Source of the DNA: Armatimonadota bacterium
GTDB taxonomy: Bacteria > Sysuimicrobiota > Sysuimicrobiia > Sysuimicrobiales > Humicultoraceae
Length of the DNA: 64,000 nt
Assembly (NCBI GenBank): GCA_037443565.1
Contig: JBBIOB010000010.1
Span: 1,329 to 65,328, forward strand
Reading direction: 5' to 3'
In this document: piece after piece, positions 25,119 to 47,631 of the stretch
Numbering within the stretch: position 1 is the stretch's first letter
Layout: each line of letters begins with the position of its first letter
Made by a program: the position numbers and the translations under genes
The notes under the pieces: model-generated
The model's input: only the letters and a program-made list of their open reading frames with translations
What the model was told of the DNA's origin: nothing
Database searches by the model: none

Positions 25119-28013
25119 GTGCAGACGATGAGTAGGTCCTACTCCAAACCGATCGCCTTCGGACTACTCGGTTCCATCTCGCTGATTGGGCTCTATCTCG
25201 GCATCGTCCGCGTCGGATCGGCCTCATGGCCCCACACGGTTGATCTCCTGGTGACCGACTGGTACCTGGTCGCCGCCGTGGCCACGGGCTTCGGCATCCA
25301 GATGGGCCTCTTCACGCATCTGCGGCAGGTCCTCCGGCAGAACGGGGGCGTCCGCTCGGCGACGGCGATGGCGGCCGGCGGCACGGCGACATCCACCACC
25401 TCGATGGTCGCCTGCTGCCTGCACCACCTGGCCGAGGTGCTGCCGATCATCGGCCTCTCGGGCGCGGCGGTCTTCTTCACCACGTACAAGGTGCCGGTCA
25501 TCCTGTTCGGACTGGCGACCAACGGGCTCGGGATCGGGATCATGCTGCGGGCGATCCGGCGGCACACCCGGGCGGTCCGCACATCCCCACGCCCATCCCC
25601 CCGTGTATCCCCGCAAGGAGGAACCCCTATGCTGCCAGCAATCGGCTACGAGGTCGGCCGCGAGACGCTGCAGCTGCACATCAGCGGCATGAGCTGCGCG
25701 TCGTGCGTCTCCAGCATCGAGGGCGCGGTCGGCAATCTCCCCGGCGTCGCCCGGGTGACCGTGACGCTCACCGCGGGCACCGCGTCGGTCGAGTACTATC
25801 CGGGGACGGTGACCCCGGCACAGATCAAGAAGACGATCCGCGACCTGGGCTATGAAGCGGCCGAGCGGCTCGACGGCGCCGCGGCGCTGGACCGCGAGCG
25901 CGAGGCGCGCCAACGCGAGATCACCCGGCAGGGGCGGTGGATGCTCGTGGCGTGGCCGCTGGGCTTCCTGGTCATGCTGGGGACCTTTCAGGCGATGTGG
26001 ATCCTCCCCCGCTTCGTGCCCGAGGTCCTGGGCAACCGCCTGGTGCTCTTCGCATTGACCACCCCGATCGTCTTCGGCCCGGGCCTGCAGTTCTTCGTCA
26101 ACTCCTACCGCGGGCTGCGGCTGGGCGTGGCCGACATGAACCTGCTCTACGCCACCGGCATTGGCGCCGCGTACCTCATCGCGATCATCAACACCTTCTG
26201 GCCCGACGCGGGGTTCGGCGGACCGCAGGCCACGTTCTACGAGGCCGCGGCGCTGCTGACCGCGTTCATCATCCTGGGCCGCTACCTCGAGGCGCTGACC
26301 CGGGGCCGGGCGTCTGAGGCGATCCGCAAGCTCATGAGCCTCCAGCCCAAGATCGCCCGGGTCGTCAGGGACGAGGCGGAGATCGAGATCCCCGCCGACG
26401 AGGTCGAGGTCGACGATCTCGTCCTCGTGCGGCCGGGCGAGCGGATCCCGGTCGACGGCGTGGTGCTCGACGGCTACTCGGCGGTGGACCAGTCGATGCT
26501 CACCGGTGAGTCCATGCCCGTCGAGAAGCGTGCCGGCGACGAGGTCATCGGCGGTACGATGAACAAGACCGGCGCGTTCCGCTTCCGCGCCACGCGGGTC
26601 GGCCGGGAGACCGCCCTGGCCCAGATCATCAAGCTCGTCGAGGACGCGCAGGCCAGCAAGGCACCGATCCAGAAGCTCGCTGACCTGGTCGCGGGGAAGT
26701 TCATCTTCTGGGTCCACGTCCTGGCGCTGGCGGTCTTTCTGTTCTGGTTCTTCCTGGGGTACGACGTGTTCTTCAGCCCGCAGACCCGGCTGATGCTCAC
26801 GCCCTACACGCTCGCAGGCGTGGGAGTCTTCGGGTTCGCGCTCCTGATCTCGGTGGCAGTCCTGGTGATCTCGTGCCCCTGCGCCGTCGGCATGGCCACG
26901 CCGAGCGCGATGATGGCCGGCACGGGCAAGGCCGCCGAGCACGGCATCCTGTTCAAGGGCGCAGATGCCGTCGAGGCCGCGAGCCGGCTGACCGCGATCA
27001 TCTTCGACAAGACCGGCACGCTGACGCGCGGCGAGCCCGCAGTAACCGACATCGTGCCGGCGCCCGGTGGCGATGTCGCCGGGCTGCTCGGCCTGGCCGC
27101 CTCGGCCGAGGTGAACTCGGAGCACCCGCTGGGCGAGGCGATCGTGCGGGGGGCGCGCGAGCGCGGTCTCGCGGTGGGCCCGCCCGAGTCATTCGAGGCT
27201 GTCCCGGGGCGCGGGGTCATCGCGCGGTCGGCCGGCCGGGATGTGCTGCTGGGCAACCGCAAGCTCATGGCCGACCGCGCCGTGGCCATCGACGCGATCA
27301 CCGGTGAGGCGGAGCGCCTCGAAGGCGAGGGCAAGACGGTCATGTTCCTGGCGGTCGACGGCCGGCCGGCCGGGCTGATCGCGGTGGCCGACACGCTGAA
27401 GCCGAACTCGATCCAGGCCGTCGGGCTGCTGCGGCGGTTCGGTCTCGAGGTCGCGATGCTCACCGGCGACAACCGGCGCACCGCCGAGGCGATCGCCCGC
27501 CAGCTCGGCATCGACCAGGTCCTGGCCGAGGTGCTCCCGCAGGACAAGGCCTCGGAAGTCCAGCGGCTCCAGGGCGCCGGGCACCGCGTCGCCATGGTCG
27601 GCGACGGCATCAACGACGCCCCGGCCCTGGCCCAGGCCGACGTGGGCATGGCCATCGGCTCGGGGACGGACATCGCCAAGGAGAGCGGCCACGTGGTCCT
27701 GGTGAAGGACGACCTCCGCGACGTCGTCACGACGATCGAGGTGGCGCGCGCGACGATGCGCAAAGTCAAACAGAACCTGTTCTGGGCGTTCGTCTACAAC
27801 GCGGTGACGATCCCGGTCGCGGCGGGGCTGCTCTACACCCGGACGTACCTGGTCGTGAGCCCGGAGATGGCCGCCTTCCTCATGGCTATCAGCTCGCTGA
27901 CGGTGACGCTGAACACCACACTGTTGAAGCGGTTCGTGCCGACGCTTCGGCTCCGGCCCGAGCCGAAGCCTGCGGGCGGTGCGCTGGCACCGGTTGCCGG
28001 GGGGCAGTCATGA
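25119..28013 (+). CDS. copA: Copper-translocating P1B-type ATPase with an unusual in-frame N-terminal ~170-aa four-TM domain; canonical CopA body starts at 25629 with its own RBS
   Basis: HMA ([13 protein letters not shown]), TGES, CPC ([12 protein letters not shown]), [17 protein letters not shown], and TM7/8 residues YN…M…SS typical of Cu(I) ATPases. An AGGAGG RBS precedes an internal ATG at 25629 (MLPAIGYEV…). The upstream 25119..25628 segment encodes TM helices with a CC…HH motif ([14 protein letters not shown]) and is in frame with no stop. Confidence 0.8.
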
Positions 28014-32725: not shown

Positions 32726-32795
32726 CACTCTCTTAACCCCACACAGATCCGAACATGTATAGTCGGGTGGACATTCTCCAATCCGGGGGGGATAC

Positions 32796-33197
32796 ATGCG
32801 AGCGAGAACCTGGGTCGCAAGTGTTGTAGTCCTGATCGCCGCCGCAGCCGCTGGATGCGCACAGCGCGCACCCCAGCCGGCGGCCGCCCCGCCGCCGGCC
32901 GCCACGGAAGGCGCGCAGTCGGTCGAGGTCACCATGCGCGACTTCGCCTTCGAGCCCAGGACCATCCAGGTCAGGGCCGGGACGGTGAACTTCGTGCTGA
33001 CCAACCAGGGCGGTGTGGAGCACGACTTCGCCATTCCCGCCCTTGAGGCACACGGCGAACACGAGCAGCACGTCGTCAGGCCTGGGCAGAGCCTCACGGT
33101 CACGCTGGACCTCCGGCCAGGAACCTACGAGGCCATCTGCACCATCCCCGGTCACAAGGAAGCTGGGATGGTTGCCACCGTGGAGGTCAGTCCGTAG
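32796..33197 (+). CDS. Cupredoxin (blue-copper, plastocyanin/azurin-like) lipoprotein
   Basis: Lipobox (AAAAGC), type-1 copper ligands His…Cys-x2-His-x4-Met (EHDF…CTIPGHKEAGM). Confidence 0.75.
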   Translation: MRARTWVASVVVLIAAAAAGCAQRAPQPAAAPPPAATEGAQSVEVTMRDFAFEPRTIQVRAGTVNFVLTNQGGVEHDFAIPALEAHGEHEQHVVRPGQSLTVTLDLRPGTYEAICTIPGHKEAGMVATVEVSP

Positions 33198-33204
33198 AGG
33201 CGAC

Positions 33205-33230
33205 CCTCGCAGGGGTCGGCCGGTGGGGAT
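33205..33230. terminator. Possible bidirectional stem-loop between convergent cupredoxin and ATPase genes
   Basis: GGCGACCCtcgcagGGGTCGGCC imperfect hairpin between the two stop codons. No U-tract, as is common in high-GC genomes. Confidence 0.25.
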
Positions 33231-35227
33231 CAGCCGCGGGCCGCATGCAGGGCGGGCGCGGGCTTGAGCACGGCGTCCGCCCGCCGGGTCCGGAACGTCA
33301 GCAGCCGGCTCGAGTTAATGACGACGAACAGCGACGCGACGTTGTGGACGATCGCGGCGCCGATGGGGGAGAGCATGCCGCTGCCGGCGAGTGCGATCCC
33401 GACGATGTTCACCGCCACGGCGAACCCCCAGATGTTCTGGCGGATGATGCCGACGGCGCGCCGCGACAGGGCCAGGATCTCGGGCAGGAGCGACAGGTCG
33501 TCGCCCATGAGCGCAATGTCCGCGGACTCGAGCGCGACATCGGTCCCGGCGGCGCCCATCGCCACGCCCACGTTCGCCAGCACCAGGGCCGGCGCATCGT
33601 TGACCCCGTCGCCGATCATGGCCACAACCTCGCCGGCGGCCTGGAGCTCGCGGATCACGTCGAGCTTCTGCTCGGGCAGCAGCCCGGCCCGTGCATCGGT
33701 GATGCCGACCTCGTCCGCGATGGCCTGCGCGGTGACCGCGTGGTCGCCGGTCAGCATCACCACGCGCCGGAGCCCCATCGCCTTCAGGCGCTCGACGATC
33801 GCGCGGGCCTGAGGCCGCACAGCGTCGGCCAGCGCGATCACACCCCAGGGTTCGCCGTCAACCCGCACCACGAGTGCGGTTCGGCCCGCGCGCTCCTGAG
33901 TCAGCAGCGCCTCGCGCGCGGGATCGCCGTCGTCCAGCAGGCGCTGATTGCCGACCTCGATGCGGCGGCCCCCCCACACGGCCTCGACCCCGCGGCCGAA
34001 TGCCATGGTGAACTGCTCGGGATCGGCCAGCCCCAGGCCCGCGGCGCGGCCATGCTCGACGATGGCGCGTCCGAGTGGGTGCTCCGAGCGCATCTCGGCA
34101 ATACCGGCCATCTGCAGCACGTCACGCGGCTGCCGTCCGCCCATCGGCTCGATCGCTGCGACGACGGGCCGGCCCTGGGTGAGCGTGCCCGTCTTGTCGA
34201 ACGCGACGGCGGTCACATGCCCCGCCGCCTCGAGCGCAATGCCCCCCTTGATCAGTCCGCCCCGGCGCGCCGCGTTGCCGACGCTGGCCACGACGGCGGT
34301 CGGCGTGGCCAGGACGAGCGCGCACGGGCAGGCGATCACCAGCACGGCCATCACGCGCAGCAGGTCGTGCGTGAGAAGCCAGACGCCCGCGGCAATGATC
34401 AGGATGATCGGCGTGAAGTGGGCCGCGAACCGGTCGGCCACCTTCTGGGTCGCGCCCTTCTGCTCCTGGGCCGCGCGCACGATCTGAATGATGCGGCCCA
34501 GCGTGGTGTCGCGGCCGACACGGTCGGCCCGCACCACGAGGGCGCCGGTCAGGCTCGTGGTGCCGGCGAACACCTTCGCGCCGGTGGTCTTGTCGGCGGG
34601 CATCGACTCGCCCGTGATCGACGCCTCGGTGATCGACGCCTCGCCCGACAGGATGACGCCGTCCACCGGCATCCGCTCGCCGGGCCGCACGAGAACCCGG
34701 TCGCCCTCCTGGACCTCGCGGACCGGCACCTCCACCCACGCGCCGTTCCGGTCGACGAGCGCCGCATCGGGGGCGAGGCGCACCAGCTCGCGCACGGCGT
34801 GGCGCGTGCGCTGCAGGGTGAGCTCTTCGAGGAACTCGCCGGCGAGCATCATGAACGCCACGACCGCGGCGGCCATGTATTCGCCCAGGTAGGCCGACCC
34901 CAGGATCGCGATGACGACGAGCGTGCCCGCGGTGATGCGGCGCTGCTCGATCATGGTGACCAGCGTGGGGTAGCCGATGGCCGCCCCGCCCAGGAGCATG
35001 GCGATCACGGCGACGTCGAATCCGGCCAGCGCGTCGATGCCCGGGATGAGCGCAATCAGGATCAGCAGCAGCAGGCCGCCGGGGAGCAGCGCGCGGCGCC
35101 ACAGCGCCCGGCCGAGCGGCCAGAAGGGAGCCGTGCGTAAGGTCGCCGACGCACGCGGCCGTTCCGGCACCGCGCCGTGGACATGGTCGTCGTGATCGTG
35201 AAGGATGGCGTGGTCGCCCTCGTGCAC
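33230..35227 (-). CDS. Heavy-metal-translocating P1B-type ATPase with His-rich N-terminus (no HMA CxxC domain); metal specificity uncertain
   Basis: MHEGDHAILHDHDDHVHG N-terminus, TGES, CPC (IACPCALVLATP), DKTGTLT, GDGVNDAPAL. TM7/8 lack the YN/MxxSS signature of Cu(I) pumps (HNVASLFVVINSSRLL). GTG start. Confidence 0.85.
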   Translation of the reverse strand: MHEGDHAILHDHDDHVHGAVPERPRASATLRTAPFWPLGRALWRRALLPGGLLLLILIALIPGIDALAGFDVAVIAMLLGGAAIGYPTLVTMIEQRRITAGTLVVIAILGSAYLGEYMAAAVVAFMMLAGEFLEELTLQRTRHAVRELVRLAPDAALVDRNGAWVEVPVREVQEGDRVLVRPGERMPVDGVILSGEASITEASITGESMPADKTTGAKVFAGTTSLTGALVVRADRVGRDTTLGRIIQIVRAAQEQKGATQKVADRFAAHFTPIILIIAAGVWLLTHDLLRVMAVLVIACPCALVLATPTAVVASVGNAARRGGLIKGGIALEAAGHVTAVAFDKTGTLTQGRPVVAAIEPMGGRQPRDVLQMAGIAEMRSEHPLGRAIVEHGRAAGLGLADPEQFTMAFGRGVEAVWGGRRIEVGNQRLLDDGDPAREALLTQERAGRTALVVRVDGEPWGVIALADAVRPQARAIVERLKAMGLRRVVMLTGDHAVTAQAIADEVGITDARAGLLPEQKLDVIRELQAAGEVVAMIGDGVNDAPALVLANVGVAMGAAGTDVALESADIALMGDDLSLLPEILALSRRAVGIIRQNIWGFAVAVNIVGIALAGSGMLSPIGAAIVHNVASLFVVINSSRLLTFRTRRADAVLKPAPALHAARG

Positions 35228-35269
35228 GGCGTGCCTCCAGGCGCGCGATGCCGGAGCGGTTCAGGCTCC

Positions 35270-35300
35270 GGAGTGTATCCCCCCGGGGGGGATACACTCC
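35270..35300. promoter_or_regulatory. Near-perfect 31-bp G/C-tract palindrome, candidate CsoR-type operator upstream of the P-type ATPase
   Basis: GGAGTGTATCCCCCCGGGGGGGATACACTCC, 43-73 nt upstream of the ATPase start. It resembles known CsoR operators (ATACCCC…GGGGTAT-type), and a CsoR gene is present at 40424. Confidence 0.5.
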
Positions 35301-35326
35301 CATCGTACCCGGACCTGCGGGTTCTG

Positions 35327-35776
35327 TCAAACGCCGGCCGGGCTCTCCAGAAGTGCTTCAATCGCCTCGGCCGGCTTGATGCCGCCGCCCCGCTGCGCAT
35401 AGCGCTCCCGCAGCGTCTCGATCGACGCGATCGGCGGAGGCGGATTGAACGTCAGGAGGAACGCCGCGGTCCGGTCAGTGGTGTTGCGGACCCCGAGCGA
35501 CACGGTGGGCTCGATGTGGATCGCGTCCCCTGCCGAGGCGACGAACGCGTCGCCGTCGAGCATGACCTCGAGTTCGCCCCGCAGCATGAAGAAGGACAGC
35601 TCGTAGGGGTCCTCCTCGTGGCCGTGAGGCGGCATGAAACCGCCAGGTGGAACATACGCCACGTATGTGAATAGATTCTTGCCGAACACGACCGGCCGGT
35701 ACCAGTAGTCGTCCTGGGCGTGCTGGAACGCTTCGAGCGTCGCGGCCCGAGTGCGACGATAGCGCCTGTCTGCCAA
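35327..35776 (-). CDS. Cupin domain protein
   Basis: Cupin motif region (…YVPPGGFMPPHGHEEDPYELSFFMLRGELEV…AIHIEPTVSLGVRN). Confidence 0.6.
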   Translation of the reverse strand: MADRRYRRTRAATLEAFQHAQDDYWYRPVVFGKNLFTYVAYVPPGGFMPPHGHEEDPYELSFFMLRGELEVMLDGDAFVASAGDAIHIEPTVSLGVRNTTDRTAAFLLTFNPPPPIASIETLRERYAQRGGGIKPAEAIEALLESPAGV

Positions 35777-35820
35777 TGATCTCCCCTCCTCAGCGAGACG
35801 CCGATGCGAGCGTCCGGCGG

Positions 35821-35988
35821 TTAGAGAAACCGCCAGACCAGGAACCCAACGACCGCACCGGCGACGATGGCGCCGGCGACGAGCCGTGCGGGCCCGACCC
35901 GCCCCGCCGACGCGTGGGGGTGGGGATGCGCGTGATCGTGCGGGTGCTCGTGATCGTCGTCCAGGATGATGTGGTCGCCTTCATGCAT
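35821..35988 (-). CDS. Small His-rich membrane-anchored peptide (55 aa), N-terminus shared with the adjacent P-type ATPase
   Basis: Minus-strand ORF MHEGDHIILDDDHEHPHDHAHPHPHASAGRVGPARLVAGAIVAGAVVGFLVWRFL. Below the ORF-track cut-off. It starts 7 nt after the permease stop. Confidence 0.4.
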   Translation of the reverse strand: MHEGDHIILDDDHEHPHDHAHPHPHASAGRVGPARLVAGAIVAGAVVGFLVWRFL

Positions 35989-35995
35989 TGCGGCT

Positions 35996-36865
35996 TCACC
36001 GTCCTCTCATCTTCGGATTGAGCACGGCTTCGAGCGAGTAGCCAAGGAACGCGAACCCCAACGTCGCCGCGGTGATGAGCAATCCCGGCGGCAGCACCCA
36101 CCAGAGCCAGGCGCCGCTGAGAAACGCGTTGCGTGCCTGGGCGTAGTAGAGCACGGTTCCCCAGCTCTTGGCCGTCGGATCGCCGAGCCCGAGGAACGAA
36201 AGCGCCGCCTCGATCAGGATCGAGTTGCTCGCCGCCAGGATGAACTGCGCCAGCGAGAGCGGGAACACCGCGGGCAGGACGTGCCGGAGCATGACGCGAC
36301 CCGGCCGGCTGCCCAGCGCCAGCGCCGCCTCGACGTAGTCGAGGGATCTGACCGACAGGACCTGCGAGCGGACCACGCGCGCCGGACGGGCCCACACCAG
36401 GACCCCGATCACGATGATGATGTTCCAGTAGCTGGGACCCAGGTACGCGGCGAGCAGGATCATCAGCGGCAGGAACGGGATCACCAGCACCAGATCCACG
36501 GCCCGCATGAGCACCACATCCGCCCAGCCGCCCAGGAATCCGGCGACCACGCCCACGGTCGTGCCGATCGTGATGGCAATGCCCGCCGCCAGGAATCCGA
36601 TCGTCAGGGAGATACGGGCGCCGTAGATCAGCTCGCTCAGAACGTCTTGGCCTACGTCGTTGGTCCCCAGGGGGTGCGCGCGGCTGGGAGCCTGGAACGG
36701 ATCGGCCACGGTCTCTTCGGGATTGTAGGGGCTCAGTGCCGGGGCAAAGACCGCCGTCGTGGTGAGCGCGGCCAGCAGGAACAGACCCACCCATCCCACC
36801 GGGCCCACGGCGAGGCGCCGGCGGCGCGTGAGTGCCCGCGGAATCGCCGGCGCCAGCACGGTCAT
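35996..36865 (-). CDS. ABC transporter permease (DppC/OppC-like)
   Basis: BPD_transp_1 signature region (…AALALGSRPGRVMLRHVLP…) and an N-terminal OppC-like extension. Confidence 0.8.
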   Translation of the reverse strand: MTVLAPAIPRALTRRRRLAVGPVGWVGLFLLAALTTTAVFAPALSPYNPEETVADPFQAPSRAHPLGTNDVGQDVLSELIYGARISLTIGFLAAGIAITIGTTVGVVAGFLGGWADVVLMRAVDLVLVIPFLPLMILLAAYLGPSYWNIIIVIGVLVWARPARVVRSQVLSVRSLDYVEAALALGSRPGRVMLRHVLPAVFPLSLAQFILAASNSILIEAALSFLGLGDPTAKSWGTVLYYAQARNAFLSGAWLWWVLPPGLLITAATLGFAFLGYSLEAVLNPKMRGR

Positions 36866-37833
36866 CGCTGCCGCACCCTTGGGTCGATCAGCGGATAGAG
36901 CAGGTCGGCGAGGATGTTGGCGGCGATCACACTGACCGTGATGATGAAGAACGTCCCCTGCATCACGGGATAGTCGCGGTTGAGCACGGCCTCGTACAGG
37001 AGCCGGCCGACCCCAGGATACGAGAAGACGGTCTCCACGATCGTGGCGCCGCTCGCGATGAACCCCAGGCTCAGCATGAACACCGTGGCGACTGGCAGCA
37101 GGGCGTTGCGCACGGCGTGCCGGCGCAGGACGGCCCGCTCGGCCACGCCCTTGGCCCGGGCCGTGACGATGTACTGCTCGCCAAGCACGGCCAGCATCGA
37201 GTAGCGCATGATCAGGTAGACACCTGGCGTGGTGATGAGCGTCAGCGTCGCCAGCGGCAGCGCAAGATGCCGCGCCCGATCAAGCAGCAGCGGCCATCCC
37301 GCCAGCGCCGCGCCGGCGGTGCCCGCGCCGAAGATCGGGAGCCAGCCCAGACCGGCGGCGAACACCGCGATGAAGATCATCCCGAGCCAGAACGACGGCA
37401 CCGACTCGAACAGCATGGCCACGCCCAGCGAGCCCAGGTCGAGCGCCGACCCCCGCCGCCAGGCGGCCATCGCCCCCAGCGCGGCCCCGGCCAGCGTCGC
37501 CAGCACGAGCGCGGTCCCCACCAGCAGGAGGGTCCAGGGCAGCCGCTCGGCGATCATGTGCGAGATCGGCCGGCCGCGCTGGAACGAGTAGCCGAGCTGT
37601 CCGCGGGCCAGGTTGGCCACGTACGTGGCAAACTGCTTCCACTGCGGCTCGTTGAGGCCGTAGAGGCTGTAGAGCTGCTCGCGTTGCTCCGGCGTGAGGA
37701 ACCCAACGTCCTCGCCGGCCAGGAAAACCAGGGGGCTGCCCGGCATCATCCGGGGCAGGAAGAAGTTGAGGGCGACCGTCAGCGCGAGAACGAGGAGATA
37801 CTGCGCCCCCCTCCCCGCAAAGAAGCGCCACAC
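36862..37833 (-). CDS. ABC transporter permease (DppB/OppB-like)
   Basis: Six-TM permease with EAA-like loop (…ARAKGVAERAVLRRHAVRNALLP…); 4-nt overlap with the downstream permease. Confidence 0.8.
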   Translation of the reverse strand: MWRFFAGRGAQYLLVLALTVALNFFLPRMMPGSPLVFLAGEDVGFLTPEQREQLYSLYGLNEPQWKQFATYVANLARGQLGYSFQRGRPISHMIAERLPWTLLLVGTALVLATLAGAALGAMAAWRRGSALDLGSLGVAMLFESVPSFWLGMIFIAVFAAGLGWLPIFGAGTAGAALAGWPLLLDRARHLALPLATLTLITTPGVYLIMRYSMLAVLGEQYIVTARAKGVAERAVLRRHAVRNALLPVATVFMLSLGFIASGATIVETVFSYPGVGRLLYEAVLNRDYPVMQGTFFIITVSVIAANILADLLYPLIDPRVRQR

Positions 37834-37867
37834 CCCGCGTGATCCCCCCTACCCCGGCGCCGCCGCC

Positions 37868-39460
37868 TCAGGGTCTCGGCGGAGTGACAAACGACAGCTT
37901 GTTCACGATCCCCTGGCCCTTCTGGTAGACCCACGCGTCGTGCCGGTCGGCGCGGTACGCGTAGACGCCGTCCTGGTAGAACAGCACGTGGATCGGGACG
38001 TCCGCGGCGATGACCTTCTGCATCTCGAAGAGGATCTGCTTCTGGCGGTCGGGCGAAGTGGCCGTCGCCAGGTCGGCACCGAGCCGGTCGATCTCGGGGT
38101 TCTTGTAGCCGCCGATATTGATGGTGCCGAAGCGGCAGTCGGAGTGGAACAGGTCGCGCAGCGACGTCGCGCGGTTCATCACCGGCGCCGACCAGCCGAA
38201 CACGGCCATGTCGAAGCGCCGCCCCTTGCAGACATCGAAGTCCGGCCAGACCTGCGCGATGATGCTCGCGTCCTCCTGGGCGACGACGCGGACGTCGATG
38301 CCGACATCACGCAGCCAGGTGCGGATCAGGTCGGCGCCGCGGACGCGGATGGGATTGCCGGCCAGCGTCAGCAGGGTGAACCGCAGCGGCGTGCCGTCCG
38401 GCGCGTCGCGGATGCCATCGCGGTTGCGGTCTGTGTAGCCGGCCTCGTTGAGGAGCTGCACCGCCCGGGTCTTGTTGGCGGTGAACGTCACCGCCGGGTT
38501 GTAGAACGGCGAGTCGGGGTGAATGTACCCCGGGCTGCCGACCACGCCGTACCCCAGTAGCAGCAGCCGCACCATGAGCCGGGTGTTGATGGCATGCGCG
38601 ATCGCCTGCCGCAGCCTGACGTCCTTGAGGAGTGGGTGCTCGTAGTTGAACTGGAGGAGCGTGGTGGCATAACCGGCGCCGCGGGCGACCTTCATCCCGG
38701 CGGTCTTCTCGAACTCAGCCACCACCTCCGGCGACAGTGGCCGCACGGTCGTGTCGATCTCGCCGGCCTTGAGCGCGGTGAAGGTGACCGTCGCGTCCCT
38801 CACGATCGGCAGGATCAGCTCGCGGACCTTGGGCCGGCCGGCGAAGTAGGTGTCGTTGGCCACCAACCGGTAGAACTGCCCGTCGCGGACCTCGGCCACG
38901 CGGTAGGGACCGCTGCCGATCACGTCGTTGAACCGGCGCGGCTCGGTCACGTTCTCCCAGATGTGCCTCGGCAGGATCGGGAGGTCGGCCAGGGGCTGCG
39001 CGGCAAACCCGCTGCTGGGCGCCGACAGGCGGATGGTGAGCCCGGTCGGGCCAGAGGTCTCGATACTCTCGATGCCCCGCACCTGCGAGGTCCACCGGGA
39101 GTGGGTATGCCGACGCACGTACTCGTACGTGAACTTCACGTCGTCGGCCGTGAACGGCCGGCCGTCGTGCCACCTGAGGTTGGGGTGCAGCGTGAACGTC
39201 CAGGTCCGGCCGTCGGCGCTGACGTTGAACTGGCGGACGAGCCAGGGCCGCGGAATGTTATCGGCGTCGGGAGTGAAGAGCGGCTCGTACACCAGCGTCA
39301 TGAGGTTCCAGCCCGGATACCCGCTCTGATACGTATAGGGATTCAGCGAGCCTTCATCGCGCGTGATCGCCATCCGCAGGGCACCGGTCTGCCCCGATGA
39401 CGGCAGCGTGATCGCCAGGACCAGCGCGAGCGCGATCACTCCATGGACAGCCGTACGCAT
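37868..39460 (-). CDS. ABC transporter substrate-binding protein, family 5
   Basis: Signal peptide (MRTAVHGVIALALVLAITLPSSG) and SBP_bac_5 architecture. Confidence 0.8.
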   Translation of the reverse strand: MRTAVHGVIALALVLAITLPSSGQTGALRMAITRDEGSLNPYTYQSGYPGWNLMTLVYEPLFTPDADNIPRPWLVRQFNVSADGRTWTFTLHPNLRWHDGRPFTADDVKFTYEYVRRHTHSRWTSQVRGIESIETSGPTGLTIRLSAPSSGFAAQPLADLPILPRHIWENVTEPRRFNDVIGSGPYRVAEVRDGQFYRLVANDTYFAGRPKVRELILPIVRDATVTFTALKAGEIDTTVRPLSPEVVAEFEKTAGMKVARGAGYATTLLQFNYEHPLLKDVRLRQAIAHAINTRLMVRLLLLGYGVVGSPGYIHPDSPFYNPAVTFTANKTRAVQLLNEAGYTDRNRDGIRDAPDGTPLRFTLLTLAGNPIRVRGADLIRTWLRDVGIDVRVVAQEDASIIAQVWPDFDVCKGRRFDMAVFGWSAPVMNRATSLRDLFHSDCRFGTINIGGYKNPEIDRLGADLATATSPDRQKQILFEMQKVIAADVPIHVLFYQDGVYAYRADRHDAWVYQKGQGIVNKLSFVTPPRP

Positions 39461-39550
39461 TCTGCCACCCCCTCCACTCATCTACGCAGTAGTGTACGCA
39501 TTCCGGCCCTGCCTCGCTACGCAGTCCACAAGCTCACCACGCCTGCCGGA

Positions 39551-40321
39551 TCAACGCACCAGGTGCGAAAGGGTAAACAGTCCGTCCCGCCGATAAGGCT
39601 CCGCGAGCGCCGCGCGGGTCGAATGGCTCATCAGACCGTGGTAGAGATGCAGGGCCTGGTCCATGCGGCGATGCACGGCCAGGCCGAGCGAGGCGTCGTC
39701 GGTGTCGGCGTCGAGGCCGGCGATCCCAGAGAGCACCGCCGCAGGCAGCCGTCGGCGCATCATCTGCGCGCTGAACGCGTGCTGGCTGCGCAGCTCTGCG
39801 AGCGCGCGTTCTTTGACGTCGATCACCTCGGTGATGTCGACCACGCAGTTCGGCCGATCGGGGGTCATGTAGTAGATTGTGGGGATGGGATGCGGGCGCA
39901 GCTCGGTCAACTGGTCGGGAGCGAAGTCGCGGCCGGCGAGCGCGATCGCCTCCAGGTACAGGATCATCGCCTGCCGCCGGTCGGGGTCGAGGTCGTGAAA
40001 CGAGTGCTCGGGGTCCTGCGTGATGACGATGTCGGGGCGGACCTCGCGGATCACCCCGACGAACCGCTTCTTTGCCTCGATGTCCGGAGTCACCGCTCCG
40101 AGCGCGAAGTCCATGAACTGGACCGTCGCGCCGAGGACCCCGGCTGCGCGGGCGATCTGCTCCCGGGCTTCGGGCCGGGCCAGCGTCACCGCCGCGTGGA
40201 CGCGGCCGCCGGCGCGCACGTGCAGGGCCACGGCGCCGCCGACTTCGACGATCTCCAGCCCGTACGTGGCGAGGACGAGCAGGGTGCCAGGTGGTGGGGT
40301 CGGCTCCACAGTCACCTCCAC
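39551..40321 (-). CDS. PIG-L/LmbE-like deacetylase family protein (divergent)
   Basis: Rossmann-like N-terminus (LLVLATYGLEIVEVGGAVA…), with overall length and pattern weakly LmbE-like. Its start abuts a CsoR-operator-like half-site. Confidence 0.35.
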   Translation of the reverse strand: MEVTVEPTPPPGTLLVLATYGLEIVEVGGAVALHVRAGGRVHAAVTLARPEAREQIARAAGVLGATVQFMDFALGAVTPDIEAKKRFVGVIREVRPDIVITQDPEHSFHDLDPDRRQAMILYLEAIALAGRDFAPDQLTELRPHPIPTIYYMTPDRPNCVVDITEVIDVKERALAELRSQHAFSAQMMRRRLPAAVLSGIAGLDADTDDASLGLAVHRRMDQALHLYHGLMSHSTRAALAEPYRRDGLFTLSHLVR

Positions 40322-40345
40322 GGGCGTTTATCCCCCCCGGGGGGT
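40322..40345. promoter_or_regulatory. CsoR-operator-like C7/G6 tract (imperfect palindrome) in the divergent region between the deacetylase-like gene and csoR
   Basis: TTTATCCCCCCCGGGGGGTTATG. The left half matches the 35270 palindrome (TATCCCCCC|GGGGGG); the right flank has diverged. Confidence 0.35.
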
Positions 40346-40423
40346 TATGTCTTCGACACCGTAGCACGGCCCTGGTAGCCCGTCAAGGCGCGGTGCTATA
40401 CTGCCGGATGCGGCGACGCGCAG

Positions 40424-40711
40424 ATGCCGCGCGGAGGGGATCACGTGCCTCACACGAAGACCAAGCAGGTCATCAACCGCCTGGCCCGCGTGGAGGGCCA
40501 CGTGCGCAGCATCCGCGGCATGGTGGCCGACGGCCGCGCGTGTCCTGAGGTGCTCATCCAGATCGCGGCCGCGCGCAGCGCGCTCGACCAGGCCGCCCGC
40601 GTCCTGCTCGAAGATCACCTGGAACACTGCGTGGTCGAGGCCAAGACCAAAGGCAACGTGGCCTCTGCGGTCGCTGAGTTGAAGGAAGCCCTGGATCGGT
40701 TCATCGGCTGA
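40424..40711 (+). CDS. csoR: CsoR/RcnR-family metal-sensing transcriptional repressor (copper-sensitive operon repressor type)
   Basis: DUF156 fold with Cu(I)-ligand pattern Cys…His-x3-Cys (RACPEV … DHLEHC). Confidence 0.75.
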   Translation: MPRGGDHVPHTKTKQVINRLARVEGHVRSIRGMVADGRACPEVLIQIAAARSALDQAARVLLEDHLEHCVVEAKTKGNVASAVAELKEALDRFIG

Positions 40712-40713
40712 GG

Positions 40714-41502
40714 TCACTCGACCCAGCGGGTCTTCTGCGCCGGGGGAATGCGGCGCCGCTGGGGAACGTGATCGGGATATCCCACGTAGATCGCCCCGGC
40801 GATCCGCCGGTCCGGCGGGATACCGAGAAACTCCAGCAACGGCGCAGACCGGATCAGACCGCCCGTCCGCAGATAGGTCCCCACGCCCAGCCCCGTGGCA
40901 ATCAGGAGCATGTTCTGGATGGCGCACATCGTCGCGCCGAAGTCATCGTCCCTGAGGTCCGGATCTTCGGGCGCGGTGGTCGTGATGACAATGATCGCCG
41001 ACGCCGCCATGGCGTCGGCATAGACCTTATTCAGCACCCGCGCCGCCGCGGGCCCTGACGGATCCGGCAGCAGCGTGCGACGGAACTCACTGCGGATCTC
41101 GGCGAAGCGCTGCTTCCCCTGGCCGGTCAGCACGATGAACTCCCAGGGCTGCGTCAGGTGGTGGTTGGGTGCCCACACCGCCGCCTCCAGCATGCGCTCG
41201 ATGATCTCGCGCGGGACCGGGTCGGGCCGAAACCGCGTCACGCTGCGGCGAAGGCGGATTGCGGCGTCGACCGGCATGGTGATGGCCGCGCCGGTGGGCG
41301 CGTCTGCAACGGGCGCGTCCGGAGAGGCCACGCCGCCCACCGGCGTGCCCGCGCGAGACGCGTAGGCCTCGGGGTCAGCCTCGAAGGCCGTCTTGCAGCC
41401 CAGCGCGCAGAAGTAGTAGGTCCGGCCGTTGTAGACGCTGGTCGCGGCCGCAGCGTCTTCCTCGACTTCCATCTGGCAGACCGGATCGATCGCGATACCC
41501 AT
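40714..41502 (-). CDS. YHS-domain/nitroreductase fusion protein
   Basis: N-terminal YHS metal-binding domain (DPVCQMEV…YNGRTYYFCALGCKTAF) fused to a nitroreductase-family domain (…NHHLTQPWEFIVL…). Confidence 0.7.
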   Translation of the reverse strand: MGIAIDPVCQMEVEEDAAAATSVYNGRTYYFCALGCKTAFEADPEAYASRAGTPVGGVASPDAPVADAPTGAAITMPVDAAIRLRRSVTRFRPDPVPREIIERMLEAAVWAPNHHLTQPWEFIVLTGQGKQRFAEIRSEFRRTLLPDPSGPAAARVLNKVYADAMAASAIIVITTTAPEDPDLRDDDFGATMCAIQNMLLIATGLGVGTYLRTGGLIRSAPLLEFLGIPPDRRIAGAIYVGYPDHVPQRRRIPPAQKTRWVE

Positions 41503-42153: not shown

Positions 42154-44514
42154 CTACTCCGGCGGCTCTACCTGGATCGCCGTGTCGAAATCGAACAACC
42201 GGCCGGTCATATAGTGTTGCGGCGCCACCATCAGCAGCCGGTGGAGCCGCCGCGTGGCTTCGCCGATCCACCCTGCAAACGCGGCCTCGCCGTCCGGCGA
42301 CTCCCACATGATAACCCGGCACGCCTCGGCACCGCACGGCACGCGCCGGCCGCGTGCAACTCTGGCCGCGGCACGCAGATACTGCAGCGCGCCGTCGGCG
42401 GCGATGGGGCGCGACATCTCCGCCCGATGCCAGGGCCCGGTGCCCTCGCGCAGGTAGCGCGTGGCGCCGACGAACACCACCTCGACGCCGGTGGACGTCC
42501 GCGCGCGGATCCGATCGGGCCGGACGAGCTCGAGCGAGGTGACAACCAGGCCCCCGCTCCCGTCGCTGATCTGGTCTTCCTCGCGCCATGTCGCCGCGGC
42601 TGCCATCGCGGCCGCAGAAGCCTCCAGCAGCCCGCGCGCGGTTGCGTCCTCCGGCGCCGCGCCTGCCGGCCCCAGACGCAGCGGAAGGCGCGTCGAGGCA
42701 TCCAGCACGCCACGGCGTCGCAGGAGCACCTCGACCTCCCACCATCCCTCCGGCAGGACGACGCCCTCGACCGCGTACCGCCCGGCGCCGGTGCCCGCCG
42801 CGATGTGTGTCGCAGGCCCGAGCTCTTCATCGAGCTTCGTCACGCGCACGAGCACCCGGGCGTCCTCATCAGGCGGCGCGCCGTCTCCGGTCGTCACGGT
42901 GACCTCGAAGCGGTTGGGCCCGGGCCGCGCGGGCTCCACGTCGAGCGCAACCCGCACGTCCCCGTCGAGACCTGCGAGCCGGAGAGCCTGGGCCGCCGTC
43001 GAGGTTGCCAGGCTGACGCGCGCCGGCGGGGTGGCGGTCAGCAGCGCCACCACCACCAGGATGCCCGCGGCCACAGCCGCCTCCGCGCCGCCCAGCCCGA
43101 GGAACCGGCCGACCGGCGAGGCCGGGTCGGGAGCTGTTGGCCCACCGGCCAGGCGCGGCCGGATGAGGAAGCGGTTCACCGCGCCCAGCGCCACCAGCGG
43201 CACGACGAGGAGAAGCTTCACGCCGAGATAGCGGCCGTACGATGTGGCGGTGAAGGCGTCCAGGTGCGGCACGTGCAGCCACGCCGCGTAGACCCCGGTC
43301 GCGGCCATGACCGCGAGGCCCGCGGCCGCCACACCGGAGAAGCGGGGGACGAGTCTTGGGGCCAGGATCGCGCGATCCTCCCGCGGCGCGACAAGGCTGA
43401 CAAGCAGGCAGGCAAGCCCGCCGATCCACACGGCGGCCGCCAGGAGGTGGAGCCAGTCGGTCGCCGCCGCCAGCGGGCCGCTGCCCCACGCGTGGGAGTT
43501 GAGGGTGACCCCGAGCAGCAGCAGCCCGGCCGCCATCGGGCGGACGGCTGCGAGCTCCGGCAGCCTGATGTCCGGGATCTGCGGCAGGATGATCGCGAGC
43601 ATGAGGCTGACGATGCCGTAGACCGCCCCCACCAGCACCACGAGCGCCAGATGATCGCTGCCGGCCAGCGCGGCCGGGCCGCCGAACAGCATCACGATCC
43701 CCACGAGCAGCACGAACCACGAGAGCCCCGCGGCGCGAAGGAGCCGGCCCCAGGGCGCCGACGGCAGCAGCAACAGCGCCGCCATCGCGACGCGAATCAC
43801 GGCGGCCCACCCCGGGTTCGTCCCGGCCGCCATGACCCAGAGGTGGCCGCCGGCAACGACATCGCGCAGCGACGCTTCGGTGAGCGCAAGCACCCGCACG
43901 AGAATCTCGGCGGCGGCGGCGATCACGACCGCGGCCGCGGAGATCACCACGACCACCCGCAGGCGCGCCGCGGCGTCGAGGTCGAGCCGGAGCGCCTCGA
44001 TCGGATCCAGTCCGCGCAGACTGGGCTCGAGCACGAGCCAAGGGAACAGCACGGCTCCGACGAGCAGTGTCACAGCTACGAATCCGGCCCAACGGACGAC
44101 CGCGAGCAGCAGATCCGGGCCGGCCAGACCGCCGAACTGCTCGGGCGGCCGCGCGCCGAGGCCAACGGTGAAGGCGAAGACGCCGCTGGTCGTGTGGCCG
44201 TCCGTCGTGGACAGCGCTCGCCAGCGCACGGTGTAGAATCCGTGCGGCAGGTCCTCGAGCGGGACGATCATCGTCCGCCCATCGGCCGACACCGCCGGCG
44301 GACCCGAGACGCGGGCCCCGGCCGGGTCGGTGACCGTCGCGGTGCTGAACGACGCGTCGACGGACTCGTTGAACCGCAGCTCAACCTGCCGCGGCGCGCG
44401 GTCGAGCGCCGAATTGGCCGCGGGGACAGAGCGCTCGACCAGGCTGTGCGCGGCTGCGGGGACCGCCGCCGCCAGCCAGAGGCCCAGTGCGCACGCCAGC
44501 GCCCTGGCGCTCAC
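42154..44514 (-). CDS. Copper resistance CopC-CopD fusion protein (YcnJ-like), paralog 2
   Basis: CopC domain (HSLVERSVPAANSAL…FYTVRWRALSTTDGHTTSGVFAFTVG), CopD membrane domain, and a conserved C-terminal domain (…CRVIMWESPDGEAAFAGWIG…HRLLM). Confidence 0.75.
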   Translation of the reverse strand: MSARALACALGLWLAAAVPAAAHSLVERSVPAANSALDRAPRQVELRFNESVDASFSTATVTDPAGARVSGPPAVSADGRTMIVPLEDLPHGFYTVRWRALSTTDGHTTSGVFAFTVGLGARPPEQFGGLAGPDLLLAVVRWAGFVAVTLLVGAVLFPWLVLEPSLRGLDPIEALRLDLDAAARLRVVVVISAAAVVIAAAAEILVRVLALTEASLRDVVAGGHLWVMAAGTNPGWAAVIRVAMAALLLLPSAPWGRLLRAAGLSWFVLLVGIVMLFGGPAALAGSDHLALVVLVGAVYGIVSLMLAIILPQIPDIRLPELAAVRPMAAGLLLLGVTLNSHAWGSGPLAAATDWLHLLAAAVWIGGLACLLVSLVAPREDRAILAPRLVPRFSGVAAAGLAVMAATGVYAAWLHVPHLDAFTATSYGRYLGVKLLLVVPLVALGAVNRFLIRPRLAGGPTAPDPASPVGRFLGLGGAEAAVAAGILVVVALLTATPPARVSLATSTAAQALRLAGLDGDVRVALDVEPARPGPNRFEVTVTTGDGAPPDEDARVLVRVTKLDEELGPATHIAAGTGAGRYAVEGVVLPEGWWEVEVLLRRRGVLDASTRLPLRLGPAGAAPEDATARGLLEASAAAMAAAATWREEDQISDGSGGLVVTSLELVRPDRIRARTSTGVEVVFVGATRYLREGTGPWHRAEMSRPIAADGALQYLRAAARVARGRRVPCGAEACRVIMWESPDGEAAFAGWIGEATRRLHRLLMVAPQHYMTGRLFDFDTAIQVEPPE

Positions 44515-44918
44515 GGCGCCACGGTGAACCGAAACGTCCCCTGCGCGACGTACTGATCGTCAGCCGAGACGGCCTTCCACCTGACGGTGTAGGCGCCCGA
44601 GCCGATGGGGCGCAGCCGGGCCAGCATGGTCTTGCGGTCGAGATCGTCCAGGTCAACCCCGCCCTTGCCGTCGTCCACGCGGCGGCCGCGCTGATCGGTG
44701 ACCGCCAGCGTGCTGGTCTTGGGATCGAGTTCGTCGTCGAACACCACGCGGACGACGCGTGGCGGCGTCTTGACGGTGCTGCCCGGCGCCGGCTCGGCGC
44801 GCACAAGCTTCGCGTGCGCGGCGGCGTCGGGCACGCTGCCCAGAACGGCGGCCATGAGGCCCACTGCCAGGAGCAGCATACCCATCGACCCTGGCGCGCG
44901 TGGCGTGTGTCTCAGCAT
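44511..44918 (-). CDS. copC: Periplasmic copper-binding protein CopC
   Basis: Signal peptide followed by the CopC fold (HAKLVRAEPAPGSTV…AYTVRWKAVSADDQYVAQGTFRFTV). 4-nt overlap with the CopCD paralog-2 start. Confidence 0.7.
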   Translation of the reverse strand: MLRHTPRAPGSMGMLLLAVGLMAAVLGSVPDAAAHAKLVRAEPAPGSTVKTPPRVVRVVFDDELDPKTSTLAVTDQRGRRVDDGKGGVDLDDLDRKTMLARLRPIGSGAYTVRWKAVSADDQYVAQGTFRFTVAP

Positions 44919-46690: not shown

Positions 46691-47631
46691 CGGTGTGGTC
46701 TCCTCTCCAGCGGGCCGCAGCGAGTGCACGACGGCTCGCAGGGCTCCACGTGGATCGTGACGTCGGTCCCGGGCAGGACCTCTTCGATGTGGCGCTCGAG
46801 ATCATCGGTCAGCGCGTGGGATTCGCCGACCGTCAGTATCCGGTGCACCACCAGGTGCAGGTCGAGGAAGCGATCGGCCCCGGCCTGACGCGTGCGCATC
46901 GCGTGGTAGTCGACGATCTCGTCCCGGTGCGCGTCCAGGATCGCCTGGATGTTCGCGACGTCGCCGCGCGGCAGCCGCGCATCCATCAGGCCGCCGATCG
47001 ACCGGCGGTAGAGTCCCACCCCCATCCACAGGATGTTGGCGCCCACCAGGATGGCCGCGATCGAGTCCAGCGGTGTCCACCCCGTCGCTGCGACGAGCCC
47101 TACGCCCAGGAGCACCCCGACCGTCGTGAGCACGTCGGACAGCAGGTGCCTGGCCGAGGCCTCCAGCGCGATCGAGCGCTCGGCGCGCGAGATGCGCAGC
47201 AGCACCGCGGCGACGACCAGGTTGGCCAGGCCCGCCGCCGCGAGCAGCGCCAGCCCGAGCGGCAGGTGCTGGAGCGGCTGCGGGTGGATGAGCCGGTTGA
47301 CCGCGACCGCGCCGATCACGATCCCCGCGATGCCGATCATGGCGGCCTCGGTGGCGCTGCTGACGTACTCGGCCTTGGCATGGCCGTATGGATGACGGTC
47401 GTCGGGCGGGCGCGTCGCGACGATCAGGCTGATCAGCGCGATGTTCGCGGCCACCACGTTGACCAGCGACTCGGCGGCGTCGGAGAGAAACGCCACCGAG
47501 CCGGTCACCAGGTAGGCCGCGAGTTTGGTGAGCAGGATGGCCAGGCCGGCGACCAGCGAGATCACGCCAGCCCGGACCTTGAGCGGAGTCGCGGCGGCAG
47601 GCGTCTGCGTGGTCTCCGAGGTCTGTGGCAC
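46687..47631 (-). CDS. Cation diffusion facilitator (CDF) family metal efflux transporter
   Basis: Six-TM CDF core (…LSDAAESLVNVV…HAKAEYVSS…) and a C-terminal cytoplasmic domain. Confidence 0.8.
   Translation of the reverse strand: MPQTSETTQTPAAATPLKVRAGVISLVAGLAILLTKLAAYLVTGSVAFLSDAAESLVNVVAANIALISLIVATRPPDDRHPYGHAKAEYVSSATEAAMIGIAGIVIGAVAVNRLIHPQPLQHLPLGLALLAAAGLANLVVAAVLLRISRAERSIALEASARHLLSDVLTTVGVLLGVGLVAATGWTPLDSIAAILVGANILWMGVGLYRRSIGGLMDARLPRGDVANIQAILDAHRDEIVDYHAMRTRQAGADRFLDLHLVVHRILTVGESHALTDDLERHIEEVLPGTDVTIHVEPCEPSCTRCGPLERRPHR

Follow-up and report, generated by a model that had tools for sequence, protein, structure and literature searches.

A predicted CsoR/RcnR-family operator at the promoter of a P1B-type ATPase gene in an Armatimonadota bacterium

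We analyzed a 64,000-nucleotide stretch of contig JBBIOB010000010.1 from an Armatimonadota bacterium (GenBank assembly GCA_037443565.1), hereafter the window, in which a 31-bp palindrome lies at 35270–35300, between the GTG start (35227) of a P1B-type ATPase gene and the stop codon of a cupin gene (35327–35776), both on the minus strand. The 19-bp core of this palindrome (site 1) is very probably an operator of the CsoR/RcnR family that represses the ATPase gene. With less confidence, we consider it probable that this core is the operator of the repressor encoded at 40445–40711, an InrS/NreA-like protein whose candidate ligands form an H-C-H-C set, and that the effector is Ni(II)/Co(II). The case is built on the sequence, the promoter geometry, conservation across phyla, the frequent presence of CsoR-family genes beside the box, and the resemblance of the regulator to InrS; from these we infer that the repressor binds, that it acts negatively, and which metal it senses.

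The palindrome and the predicted ATPase promoter

Inside the palindrome, a C6 run directly abuts a G7 run. The initial annotation described the element as near-perfect; its arms are in fact complementary at 15/15 nt, and the distance of 43–73 bp upstream of the P1B ATPase start was verified against GTG 35227. No other perfect palindrome in the window is as long, and the longest arms in 60 simulated 64-kb sequences (first-order Markov) measured 9–14 nt and never reached 15. The second longest (CCCCGCTCTCGCGC-ctc-GCGCGAGAGCGGGG, 46110–46140, with 14-nt arms) is inside a PGI-like gene (45014–46729, minus strand). C runs of ≥6 abutting G runs of ≥6 occur at just two places in the window, namely, site 1 and a second site at 40329–40347 (site 2). 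The inner 21-mer with ≤3 mismatches has an expectation of 0.00 in shuffled sequences, yet a second match was found at 40328–40348.

On the ATPase strand, the core of site 1 reads TATCCCCCCCGGGGGGATA (35294–35276) and has no mismatch to the TATCC/GGATA ends of the NreA-type box, whereas site 2 has one mismatch, which falls within an essential triplet (GGA to GGT). With the flank patterns TAT-C6/G7-ATA (site 1) and TAT-C7/G6-TTA (site 2), both are G/C tracts with AT-rich inverted repeats in a window of 70% GC. A position weight matrix (PWM) built from 54 genome sites of the box was used to score the whole window; sites 1 and 2 scored 26.3 and 26.1, respectively, against −0.8 for the next best position and a shuffle maximum of 11.6. 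Both high-scoring sites are intergenic, and site 2 adjoins the sole PF02583 gene of the window. A chance origin of the box was rejected on the shuffles, the PWM, and the Markov simulations, and an origin from a repeat or mobile element was rejected with only two copies found, each at a conserved regulatory position.

The predicted ATPase promoter, TTGACA-17-TACGAT, is a 10/12 sigma-70-like match for which 0.0 are expected in shuffles. The order on the ATPase strand is TTGACA, 17 nt, TACGAT, GGGAGTG, the core, approximately 37 nt, GGAGG, 6 nt, and GTG. The −35 hexamer shares sequence with the stop codon of the cupin gene, so the ATPase gene appears to have a promoter of its own. The core starts 7 nt past the −10 hexamer and would therefore cover approximately +1 to +19 of the ATPase transcript, and this predicted placement is the classic position of a repressor site. 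We propose that a metal-free tetramer would bind the 19-bp core at the transcription start and block RNA polymerase binding or promoter escape, keeping the ATPase off; filling of the Cys/His sites by the cognate metal would lower the affinity of the repressor for DNA, so that the ATPase would be transcribed and the metal exported.

Conservation of the box and the second site

Orthologous loci (given by L numbers) were recovered by exact-protein look-ups; their ATPases are 71–80% identical, and the nearest named relatives are Armatimonadota metagenome-assembled genomes (MAGs). The shared order is a divergent 88-aa regulator gene, a deacetylase or cupin gene, SBP_bac_5, two Opp/Nik-type permease genes, a 47–61-aa open reading frame (ORF) starting with MHEGDH, an optional cupin gene, and the ATPase gene; L204 has neither deacetylase nor cupin after the regulator. 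An alignment of six upstream regions shows five conserved islands only (TTGACA, TAnnAT, the box, GGAGG, and the (A/G)TGCACGA start), and the rest has diverged. GACA of the −35 element is invariant, and five of the six regions show the complete TTGACA, the L002 slice beginning inside the hexamer. The layout of promoter followed by box is also present in L202–L205, L206, and, with a weaker −35, L002, and the box precedes the starts of orthologous ATPase genes or small ORFs in L002, L202–L205, L206, and L207. The outer arms, GGAGTG/CACTCC, are specific to the present genome and are not conserved at the orthologous loci; the functional unit is therefore probably the 19-bp core rather than the 31-bp unit first put forward, conservation being confined to the inner 19 bp.

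The same arrangement extends to Firmicutes. Paenibacillus mesotrionivorans carries TTGACA-17-TATACT-5nt-TATCCCCCCTGGGGGGATA, a Shine-Dalgarno (SD) sequence, the ATG of an MHEGDH small ORF, and the ATPase gene. In Desulfosporosinus sp. OT, TAACCCCCCCGGGGGGATA precedes an MHEGHH small ORF and the ATPase gene, with CbiM/Q/O upstream and a CsoR-family gene downstream, and further loci have a CsoR-family gene, the small ORF, and the ATPase gene as a single string. The small ORF (47–98 aa) starts with MHEG(D/H)H, continues with a His/Asp-rich stretch, and has one C-terminal transmembrane (TM) helix ending in W(R/K)F; in Armatimonadota as well as in Firmicutes, it adjoins genes of the present ATPase subfamily. 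The ATPases of the window and of L202 additionally carry the MHEGDH start fused onto their own N-terminus. The small ORF matched no Pfam or NCBIfam family and had 16 matches at E ≤ 1e-3 among 1.8 billion representatives.

The initial annotation proposed a genome-wide search for the box pattern. We scanned one genome per species (185,579 species) with the pattern TATCCCCCCN{0,2}GGGGGATA, which gave at least 80 loci. A CsoR-family ORF lies ≤450 nt from the box, mostly touching it, in 60 of the 80 loci listed, which argues that the box is a widespread CsoR-family operator. These CsoR-associated boxes are from Pseudomonas, Alpha- and Betaproteobacteria, Clostridia, Bacilli, Actinobacteria, Chthonomonadaceae, Planctomycetota, Patescibacteria, and others. 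Among the same 80 loci, the neighbors transcribed away from the box mainly encode His-tailed MFS proteins (21), EamA (12), NicO/RcnA (9), HupE/UreJ (5), P1B ATPases (4, with more within 3 kb), and CDF proteins (3). With the NCBIfam nickel/cobalt efflux model NF007454, a NicO/RcnA representative scores 458 bits, above the cut-off of 195, and at the cyanobacterial locus L141 the box in front of an nrsD-like His-tailed MFS gene is exactly TATCCCCCCTGGGGGGATA.

Some of the boxes accompany other types of regulator. In L113, L135, L158, and L139 (Patescibacteria and one Gammaproteobacteria MAG), the 19-bp box lies beside canonical Tyr-Cys CsoR-type regulators, and at the three Patescibacteria/Saccharibacteria loci a P1B ATPase and a DsbD2-cupredoxin fusion accompany the Tyr-Cys CsoR. 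Since Tyr-Cys CsoRs adjoin the same box, it appears to be common to copper-type and nickel-type branches of the family. An 18-bp version (17 bp in Kribbella; e.g., TATCCCCCCGGGGGGATA) was found in L105, L127, L133, L147, and L156 (Kribbella, Nocardioides, Nocardia, and Aeromicrobium), where the regulators read Cys...GLQ(H/Q)C without His at position Y, an x-C-x-C set like that of the persulfide-sensor type. The CsoR-family regulator at L123 2328–2624, encoded next to the box and an ATPase gene, is unusual in having Phe for Cys at position X (EDQNFTDVMIQ) and a ligand helix that ends in NHVNCC.

Site 2 is kept in three of the four other Armatimonadota loci (L202, L203, and L205) and is absent in L204. 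It lies inside the 135-bp divergent region between the gene for a PIG-L/BshB-like deacetylase and the CsoR-family gene, a region that the initial annotation had suggested as a further target and in which the second box is indeed present. The end of site 2 is 8 nt upstream of the deacetylase SD; the deacetylase start is GTG 40309 with GGAGG before it. Transcription of the operon has to begin either inside site 2 or farther upstream, so binding there should hinder it, and site 2 would thus put the operon for the deacetylase, the Opp/Nik-type ABC system, the small His-rich peptide, and the cupin under the same sensor. A candidate promoter of this operon in the window, TTGACG-17-TACGGT, is not conserved in the orthologs. 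An NreA-like layout at site 2, with the box within the promoter spacer, is weakly supported. Autoregulation is not evident, because the −10 element of the regulator is approximately 50 nt from site 2 and is not overlapped.

Genes for ATP-binding subunits are absent beside SBP_bac_5 and the two permeases (35996–39481) in every Armatimonadota locus, and the best NCBIfam matches of the ABC genes are nickel and oligopeptide permeases, all below cut-off. In Wukongibacter (L209 9340–13929), the orthologous ATPase gene is followed by genes for a PIG-L deacetylase, an SBP_bac_5 ABC system with ABC_tran, and an M20 peptidase. The linkage of ATPase, deacetylase, and ABC genes therefore recurs in a second phylum.

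The regulator, the ATPase, and the metal sensed

The candidate repressor is the only PF02583 product encoded within the window. The initial annotation had correctly placed a CsoR gene 5 kb away, with a start at 40424; the start is almost certainly GTG 40445 and not ATG 40424, because GGAGG lies 7 nt upstream, the public gene call is also 88 aa, and all orthologs begin with MPHTKTKQV. Its candidate ligands are His3, Cys33, His58, and Cys62, plus His61. C33, H58, and C62 align with the ligands of InrS and CsoR, so that the C-H-C positions X, Y, and Z are present; Ala32 precedes Cys33 in place of the Tyr of Cu CsoRs, and His3 is kept in all orthologs (MPHTKTK). The best structurally characterized relative is InrS (100–103 bits; 53% identity over 81 residues without gaps), with PDB 6AHX as the second-best structure match. 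Scores were 60–67 bits (40% identity) for Geobacillus CsoR, 46 bits for Mycobacterium tuberculosis CsoR, and 25–31 bits for RcnR (31 with the NCBIfam RcnR model).

The ATPase carries the TM signature IACPCALVLATP / QNIWGFAVAVN / IVHNVAS with CPC in TM4, and IACPCALVLATP / QNIWxFAVxVN / HN(V/I)(A/S)S is retained across the 120 homologs listed, down to 51% identity. P1B-1 Cu+ ATPases are marked by CPC in TM4, YN in TM5, MxxSS in TM6, and an N-terminal HMA domain. The present ATPase shares the CPC; it reads VN in TM5 and HNVAS in TM6, an HMA domain was not found in the protein encoded at 33230–35227, and it thus falls outside this class. It resembles P1B-4 pumps (SPC, HEGxT, no HMA) in lacking HMA and in the aligned TM6 His, but has CPC in TM4 and HNVAS in TM6. 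The His of IVHNVAS stands where Cu pumps carry the ligand Met and is aligned to HEGST of sCoaT, a P1B-4 pump that is also the best PDB match of the C-terminal half (266 bits vs 242 for AfCopA). Among the metagenome matches listed for the ATPase, most were pumps from other P1B subfamilies at 40% identity, and L002 and L014 were the useful loci. The ATPase and the small partner peptide both begin with MHE, which is the conserved nickel site of HypA (PMC7055735); the start recalls that motif as a resemblance, not as a test.

Two other P1B ATPases are encoded in the window. A canonical Cu+ pump (CopA; 25119–28013, plus strand), with HMA CxxC, CPC, YN, and MAISS, lies 7 kb from the ATPase and is without a box in the PWM scan of the 64-kb window. 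The same scan gave no box for the cupredoxin-HMA-ATPase at 17204–19519 (minus strand), the ORF of which stops before TM5–6, suggesting a frameshift or pseudogene.

As to the effector, we regard Ni/Co as probable, Cu as a possible but lesser candidate, and any other effector as improbable. The points that favor Ni/Co are the closeness of the regulator to InrS, the conserved His3 and the missing Tyr before Cys33, the Ni/Co exporter neighbors of the box, the TM6 His, the sCoaT match and the lack of HMA in the ATPase, the MHE starts, and the boxless CopA; CbiMNQO beside the Desulfosporosinus ortholog also counts for it. The annotation of the site as a CsoR operator for the His-rich ATPase thus holds for family and target, whereas copper as the signal is doubtful given the InrS-like regulator, its His3, and the NreA form of the box.

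Several points weigh against the Ni/Co reading or its parts. The C-H-C ligands of the regulator suit Cu(I) too, even InrS shows tight Cu(I) binding in vitro (PMC4235346), and reviewers caution that sequence does not fix metal selectivity (PMC7055735). In the gapless alignment, His3 is shifted by two residues from the position that InrS His21 and RcnR His3 occupy, on a tail described as flexible; the InrS N-terminal sequence used agrees with the residue numbering of the InrS match. The box alone is not diagnostic of the metal, because canonical Tyr-Cys CsoRs in Patescibacteria use it too, and the PWM is biased toward site 1, because its source sites were chosen with a site-1-derived pattern. 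The ATPase passes the NCBIfam cut-offs of both Cu and Cd subfamily models, with 425 against a cut-off of 397 for TIGR01511 (Cu) and its highest score with the Cd/Zn subfamily model. Of the five syntenic loci, four lie amid copper genes (CopCD, multicopper oxidase, cupredoxin, and YHS). A promoter of the deacetylase/ABC operon was sought and not located, and it would be counter-intuitive for excess metal to derepress what appears to be an ABC uptake system.

The best-surviving alternative, to which we give a modest chance, is that site 1 is a copper CsoR operator, at which Cu(I) is sensed via Cys33-His58-Cys62 and the ATPase serves as a Cu+ exporter of the surrounding copper island. The C-H-C triad, the CPC motif together with the TIGR01511 score, and the use of the same box by YC-type CsoRs of Patescibacteria agree with it, as do CopC-CopD, CopC, YHS, and the CopI-like cupredoxin in the window and the copper genes of the syntenic loci. 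However, His3 is conserved, Ala replaces the Tyr before Cys33, and InrS is closer to the regulator than any structurally characterized CsoR; the ATPase is without HMA, the YN motif, and the Met of MxxSS, while the canonical CopA that has all these features, 7 kb away, has no box; and most box occurrences elsewhere, among the loci listed, accompany Ni/Co exporters.

It is improbable that the same operator and repressor respond to Zn/Cd or to a non-metal such as persulfide or aldehyde. CsoR-family members do sense persulfides and formaldehyde (PMC8643695), the 18-bp variant lies beside x-C-x-C regulators in Actinobacteria, and the top-scoring subfamily model of the ATPase is Cd/Zn, but the conserved His at position Y and N-terminal His point to a metal site, and the target is a metal pump with a His-rich tail.

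Very unlikely is an RNA hairpin (a U-tract-less terminator, attenuator, or stabilizer at the 3' end of the cupin/ABC transcript) instead of a protein site: the palindrome is 27 nt past the cupin stop codon and the 108-nt region folds very stably (−57.2 kcal/mol, z = −3.05), but a scan of 35100–35500 found no terminator-like match and no T-run around the palindrome, as an intrinsic terminator would need, TATCC...GGATA is conserved in sequence without compensatory variation while the outer arms are lost in orthologs, the box is also present in divergent promoter regions that contain no gene end (site 2, L202, and L205) and behind its own conserved promoter in L203–L205, and a CsoR-family gene adjoins it in 60 of the 80 loci listed. 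A hairpin may add a secondary effect on read-through.

If the Ni/Co operator reading holds, it may tentatively be extended to a cross-phylum Ni/Co module, in which an InrS-like sensor would gate the CPC/VN/HN ATPase subfamily with its MHE peptide and, in Armatimonadota, an Opp/Nik-type ABC uptake operon. This would define an uncharacterized P1B subfamily in which His replaces the Cu-ligand Met of TM6 and which is paired with a His-tailed MHE membrane peptide.

Neighboring genes and known systems

The positions of the features are collected in Table 1. The initial annotation had also counted the cupredoxin gene among the targets, and this was not borne out. The gene encodes a CopI-like lipoprotein (32796–33197) on the plus strand, opposite to the ATPase, and is downstream of the response regulator/histidine kinase pair of a two-component system. 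Directly before its ATG (32796) lies TCTCCAATCCGGGGGGGATA (32776–32795), which has the right half of the box, with the left TCC at N10, and overlaps the SD; this mis-spaced half-site, TcTCC-N10-GGATA, has a PWM score of −7.4, and the G7 run is probably the ribosome-binding site of the gene. Further away are a 786-aa CopC-CopD-YtkA fusion (42154–44514, minus strand), preceded by a separate CopC (44511–44918, minus strand), a YHS-nitroreductase fusion (40714–41502), and a CDF gene (46687–47631). Taken together, these genes suggest that the region is a multi-metal island.

Table 1 Features of the ATPase and regulator loci in the window and at orthologous loci (L numbers)
Feature	Position	Strand	Remarks
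Full palindrome	35270–35300	.	GGAGTGTATCCCCCC-G-GGGGGGATACACTCC; 15-nt arms, 1-nt center, 100% complementary
Operator core, site 1 (predicted)	35276–35294	.	TATCCCCCCGGGGGGGATA; TATCC-N9-GGATA, 19 bp; PWM 26.3 and conservation
Operator site 2 (predicted)	40329–40347	.	TATCCCCCCCGGGGGGTTA (minus strand TAACCCCCCGGGGGGGATA); PWM 26.1; conserved in L202, L203, L205
−35 hexamer TTGACA of ATPase promoter (predicted)	35325–35330	−	Promoter scan; overlaps cupin stop codon
−10 hexamer TACGAT (predicted)	35302–35307	−	Promoter scan; 17-nt spacer; 7 nt before operator core
SD GGAGG	35234–35238	−	6 nt before GTG 35227; invariant in upstream alignment
P1B-type ATPase, regulated gene	33230–35227	−	665 aa; no HMA; N-terminus (V/M)HEGDH, His-rich
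Operon downstream of site 2	35327–40309	−	Deacetylase, SBP_bac_5, two permeases, small ORF, cupin; synteny kept in L202–L205
PIG-L/BshB-like deacetylase	39551–40309	−
SBP_bac_5 protein	37868–39481	−
Two Opp/Nik-type permeases	36862–37833 and 35996–36865	−
Small His-rich membrane ORF	35821–35988	−	MHEGDH...; 55 aa
Cupin gene	35327–35776	−
Candidate cognate repressor, CsoR/RcnR family	40445–40711	+	PF02583, 95 bits; 88 aa; MPHTKTKQV...
Extended −10 of regulator promoter	40394–40402	+	TGcTATACT; conserved as CAGTATAGCA in L202–L204
Box of L202			TATCCCCCCAGGGGGGATA
Box of L203			TATCCCCCCTGGGGGGTTA
Box of L204			CATCCCCCCTGGGGGGATA
Box of L205			TATCCCCCTAGGGGGGATA
Box of L002			TATCCCCCCTGGGAGGATA
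Small-ORF copy, L202	6225–6410
Small-ORF copy, L203	4800–4964
Small-ORF copy, L204	6831–6992
Small-ORF copy, L205	6850–6993
Small-ORF copy, L206	4735–4983
Small-ORF copy, L207	4797–4985
Small-ORF copy, L208	4677–4973
Small-ORF copy, L210	5707–5964

These assignments give a concrete cis-element, a predicted promoter, and a candidate regulator to a metal pump of an uncultured Armatimonadota lineage. Use of the NreA-type box reaches well past the rhizobia, to Armatimonadota, Firmicutes, cyanobacteria, Pseudomonas, Actinobacteria, and Patescibacteria, and the box offers a practical handle for predicting CsoR-family regulons. The assignments also caution that a C-H-C CsoR-family protein need not be a copper sensor, and they flag for studies of metal specificity an ATPase subfamily whose set of transmembrane ligands is unusual, together with its conserved MHE/His-rich partner peptide.

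This type of switch is already known, and the present case is a further member. Within the family, bona fide Cu CsoRs are x-C-H-C, whereas the NreA/NcrB and InrS clusters are H-C-H-C Ni/Co sensors (PMC8643695, PMC11672702), and clusters 5 and 12 of the PF02583 similarity network are the InrS/NreA-type Ni/Co sensors (PMC8643695). Mesorhizobium NreA (93 aa, CsoR/RcnR family) represses nreAXY via TATCCtctcgggggGGATA, with the consensus TATCCYCtccrgGRGGATA (PMC12724321; Jensen and Griffitts 2025); the TCC-N9-GGA ends of its operator are essential, nickel relieves repression, and C38, H63, and C67 are needed for induction (PMC12724321). In a full-text literature search for the box, this report was the match, and the cyanobacterial matches were primers and adaptors without relation to it. 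Site 1 is like the NreA operator in being a 19-bp TATCC-N9-GGATA dyad with a G/C-rich center, associated with an approximately 90-aa CsoR/RcnR-family repressor and metal efflux targets, and C33/H58/H61/C62 of the present regulator match C38/H63/H66/C67 of NreA. By contrast, the NreA box fills the −35/−10 spacer of a leaderless autoregulated operon that starts with the regulator gene, whereas the present box, with its C6/G7 double tract, follows the −10 and is itself followed by an SD-containing leader, the predicted target is a P1B ATPase gene, and the regulator gene stands apart with a promoter that the box does not overlap.

The regulator shares with InrS of Synechocystis PCC 6803 (5FMN) the C-H-C ligands and, through its candidate ligand His3, probably the H-C-H-C set, and one sensor would likewise be tied to an exporter and an uptake system. 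The inverted-repeat site of InrS at nrsD overlaps the Pribnow box and is intergenic within a gene string (PMC3320959, PMC4235346). Unlike InrS, which has a 25-residue His-rich N-terminal extension, the present regulator begins with no more than MPHT. The exporter under InrS control is an MFS protein, and InrS reportedly enhances expression of nik (PMC7055735, PMC11672702), whereas site 2 lies where it would repress the ABC operon, and its position does not look like that of an activator site. The present case would add to the dual control of export and import among CsoR-family sensors, which to our knowledge has been reported for InrS only.

Likeness to the Escherichia coli RcnR operators at rcnA-rcnR (TACT-G6-N-AGTA; PMC7055735) extends to the family, the G-tract with an AT-rich inverted repeat, two sites per regulon, a His3 near the N-terminus, and, as proposed here, derepression of a Ni/Co exporter; RcnR differs in its H-C-H-H set and its TACT/AGTA half-sites. 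Finally, the Cu(I) CsoR operators of M. tuberculosis cso, Bacillus subtilis copZA, and Streptomyces lividans are likewise GC-tract pseudo-palindromes overlapping P1B ATPase promoters, and the Cys-His-Cys ligands and the derepression mechanism would be shared as well. However, those CsoRs are x-C-H-C with Tyr before the first Cys and control HMA-bearing CopA and CopZ, and the half-sites of Cu(I) CsoR operators read TACCC rather than TATCC.

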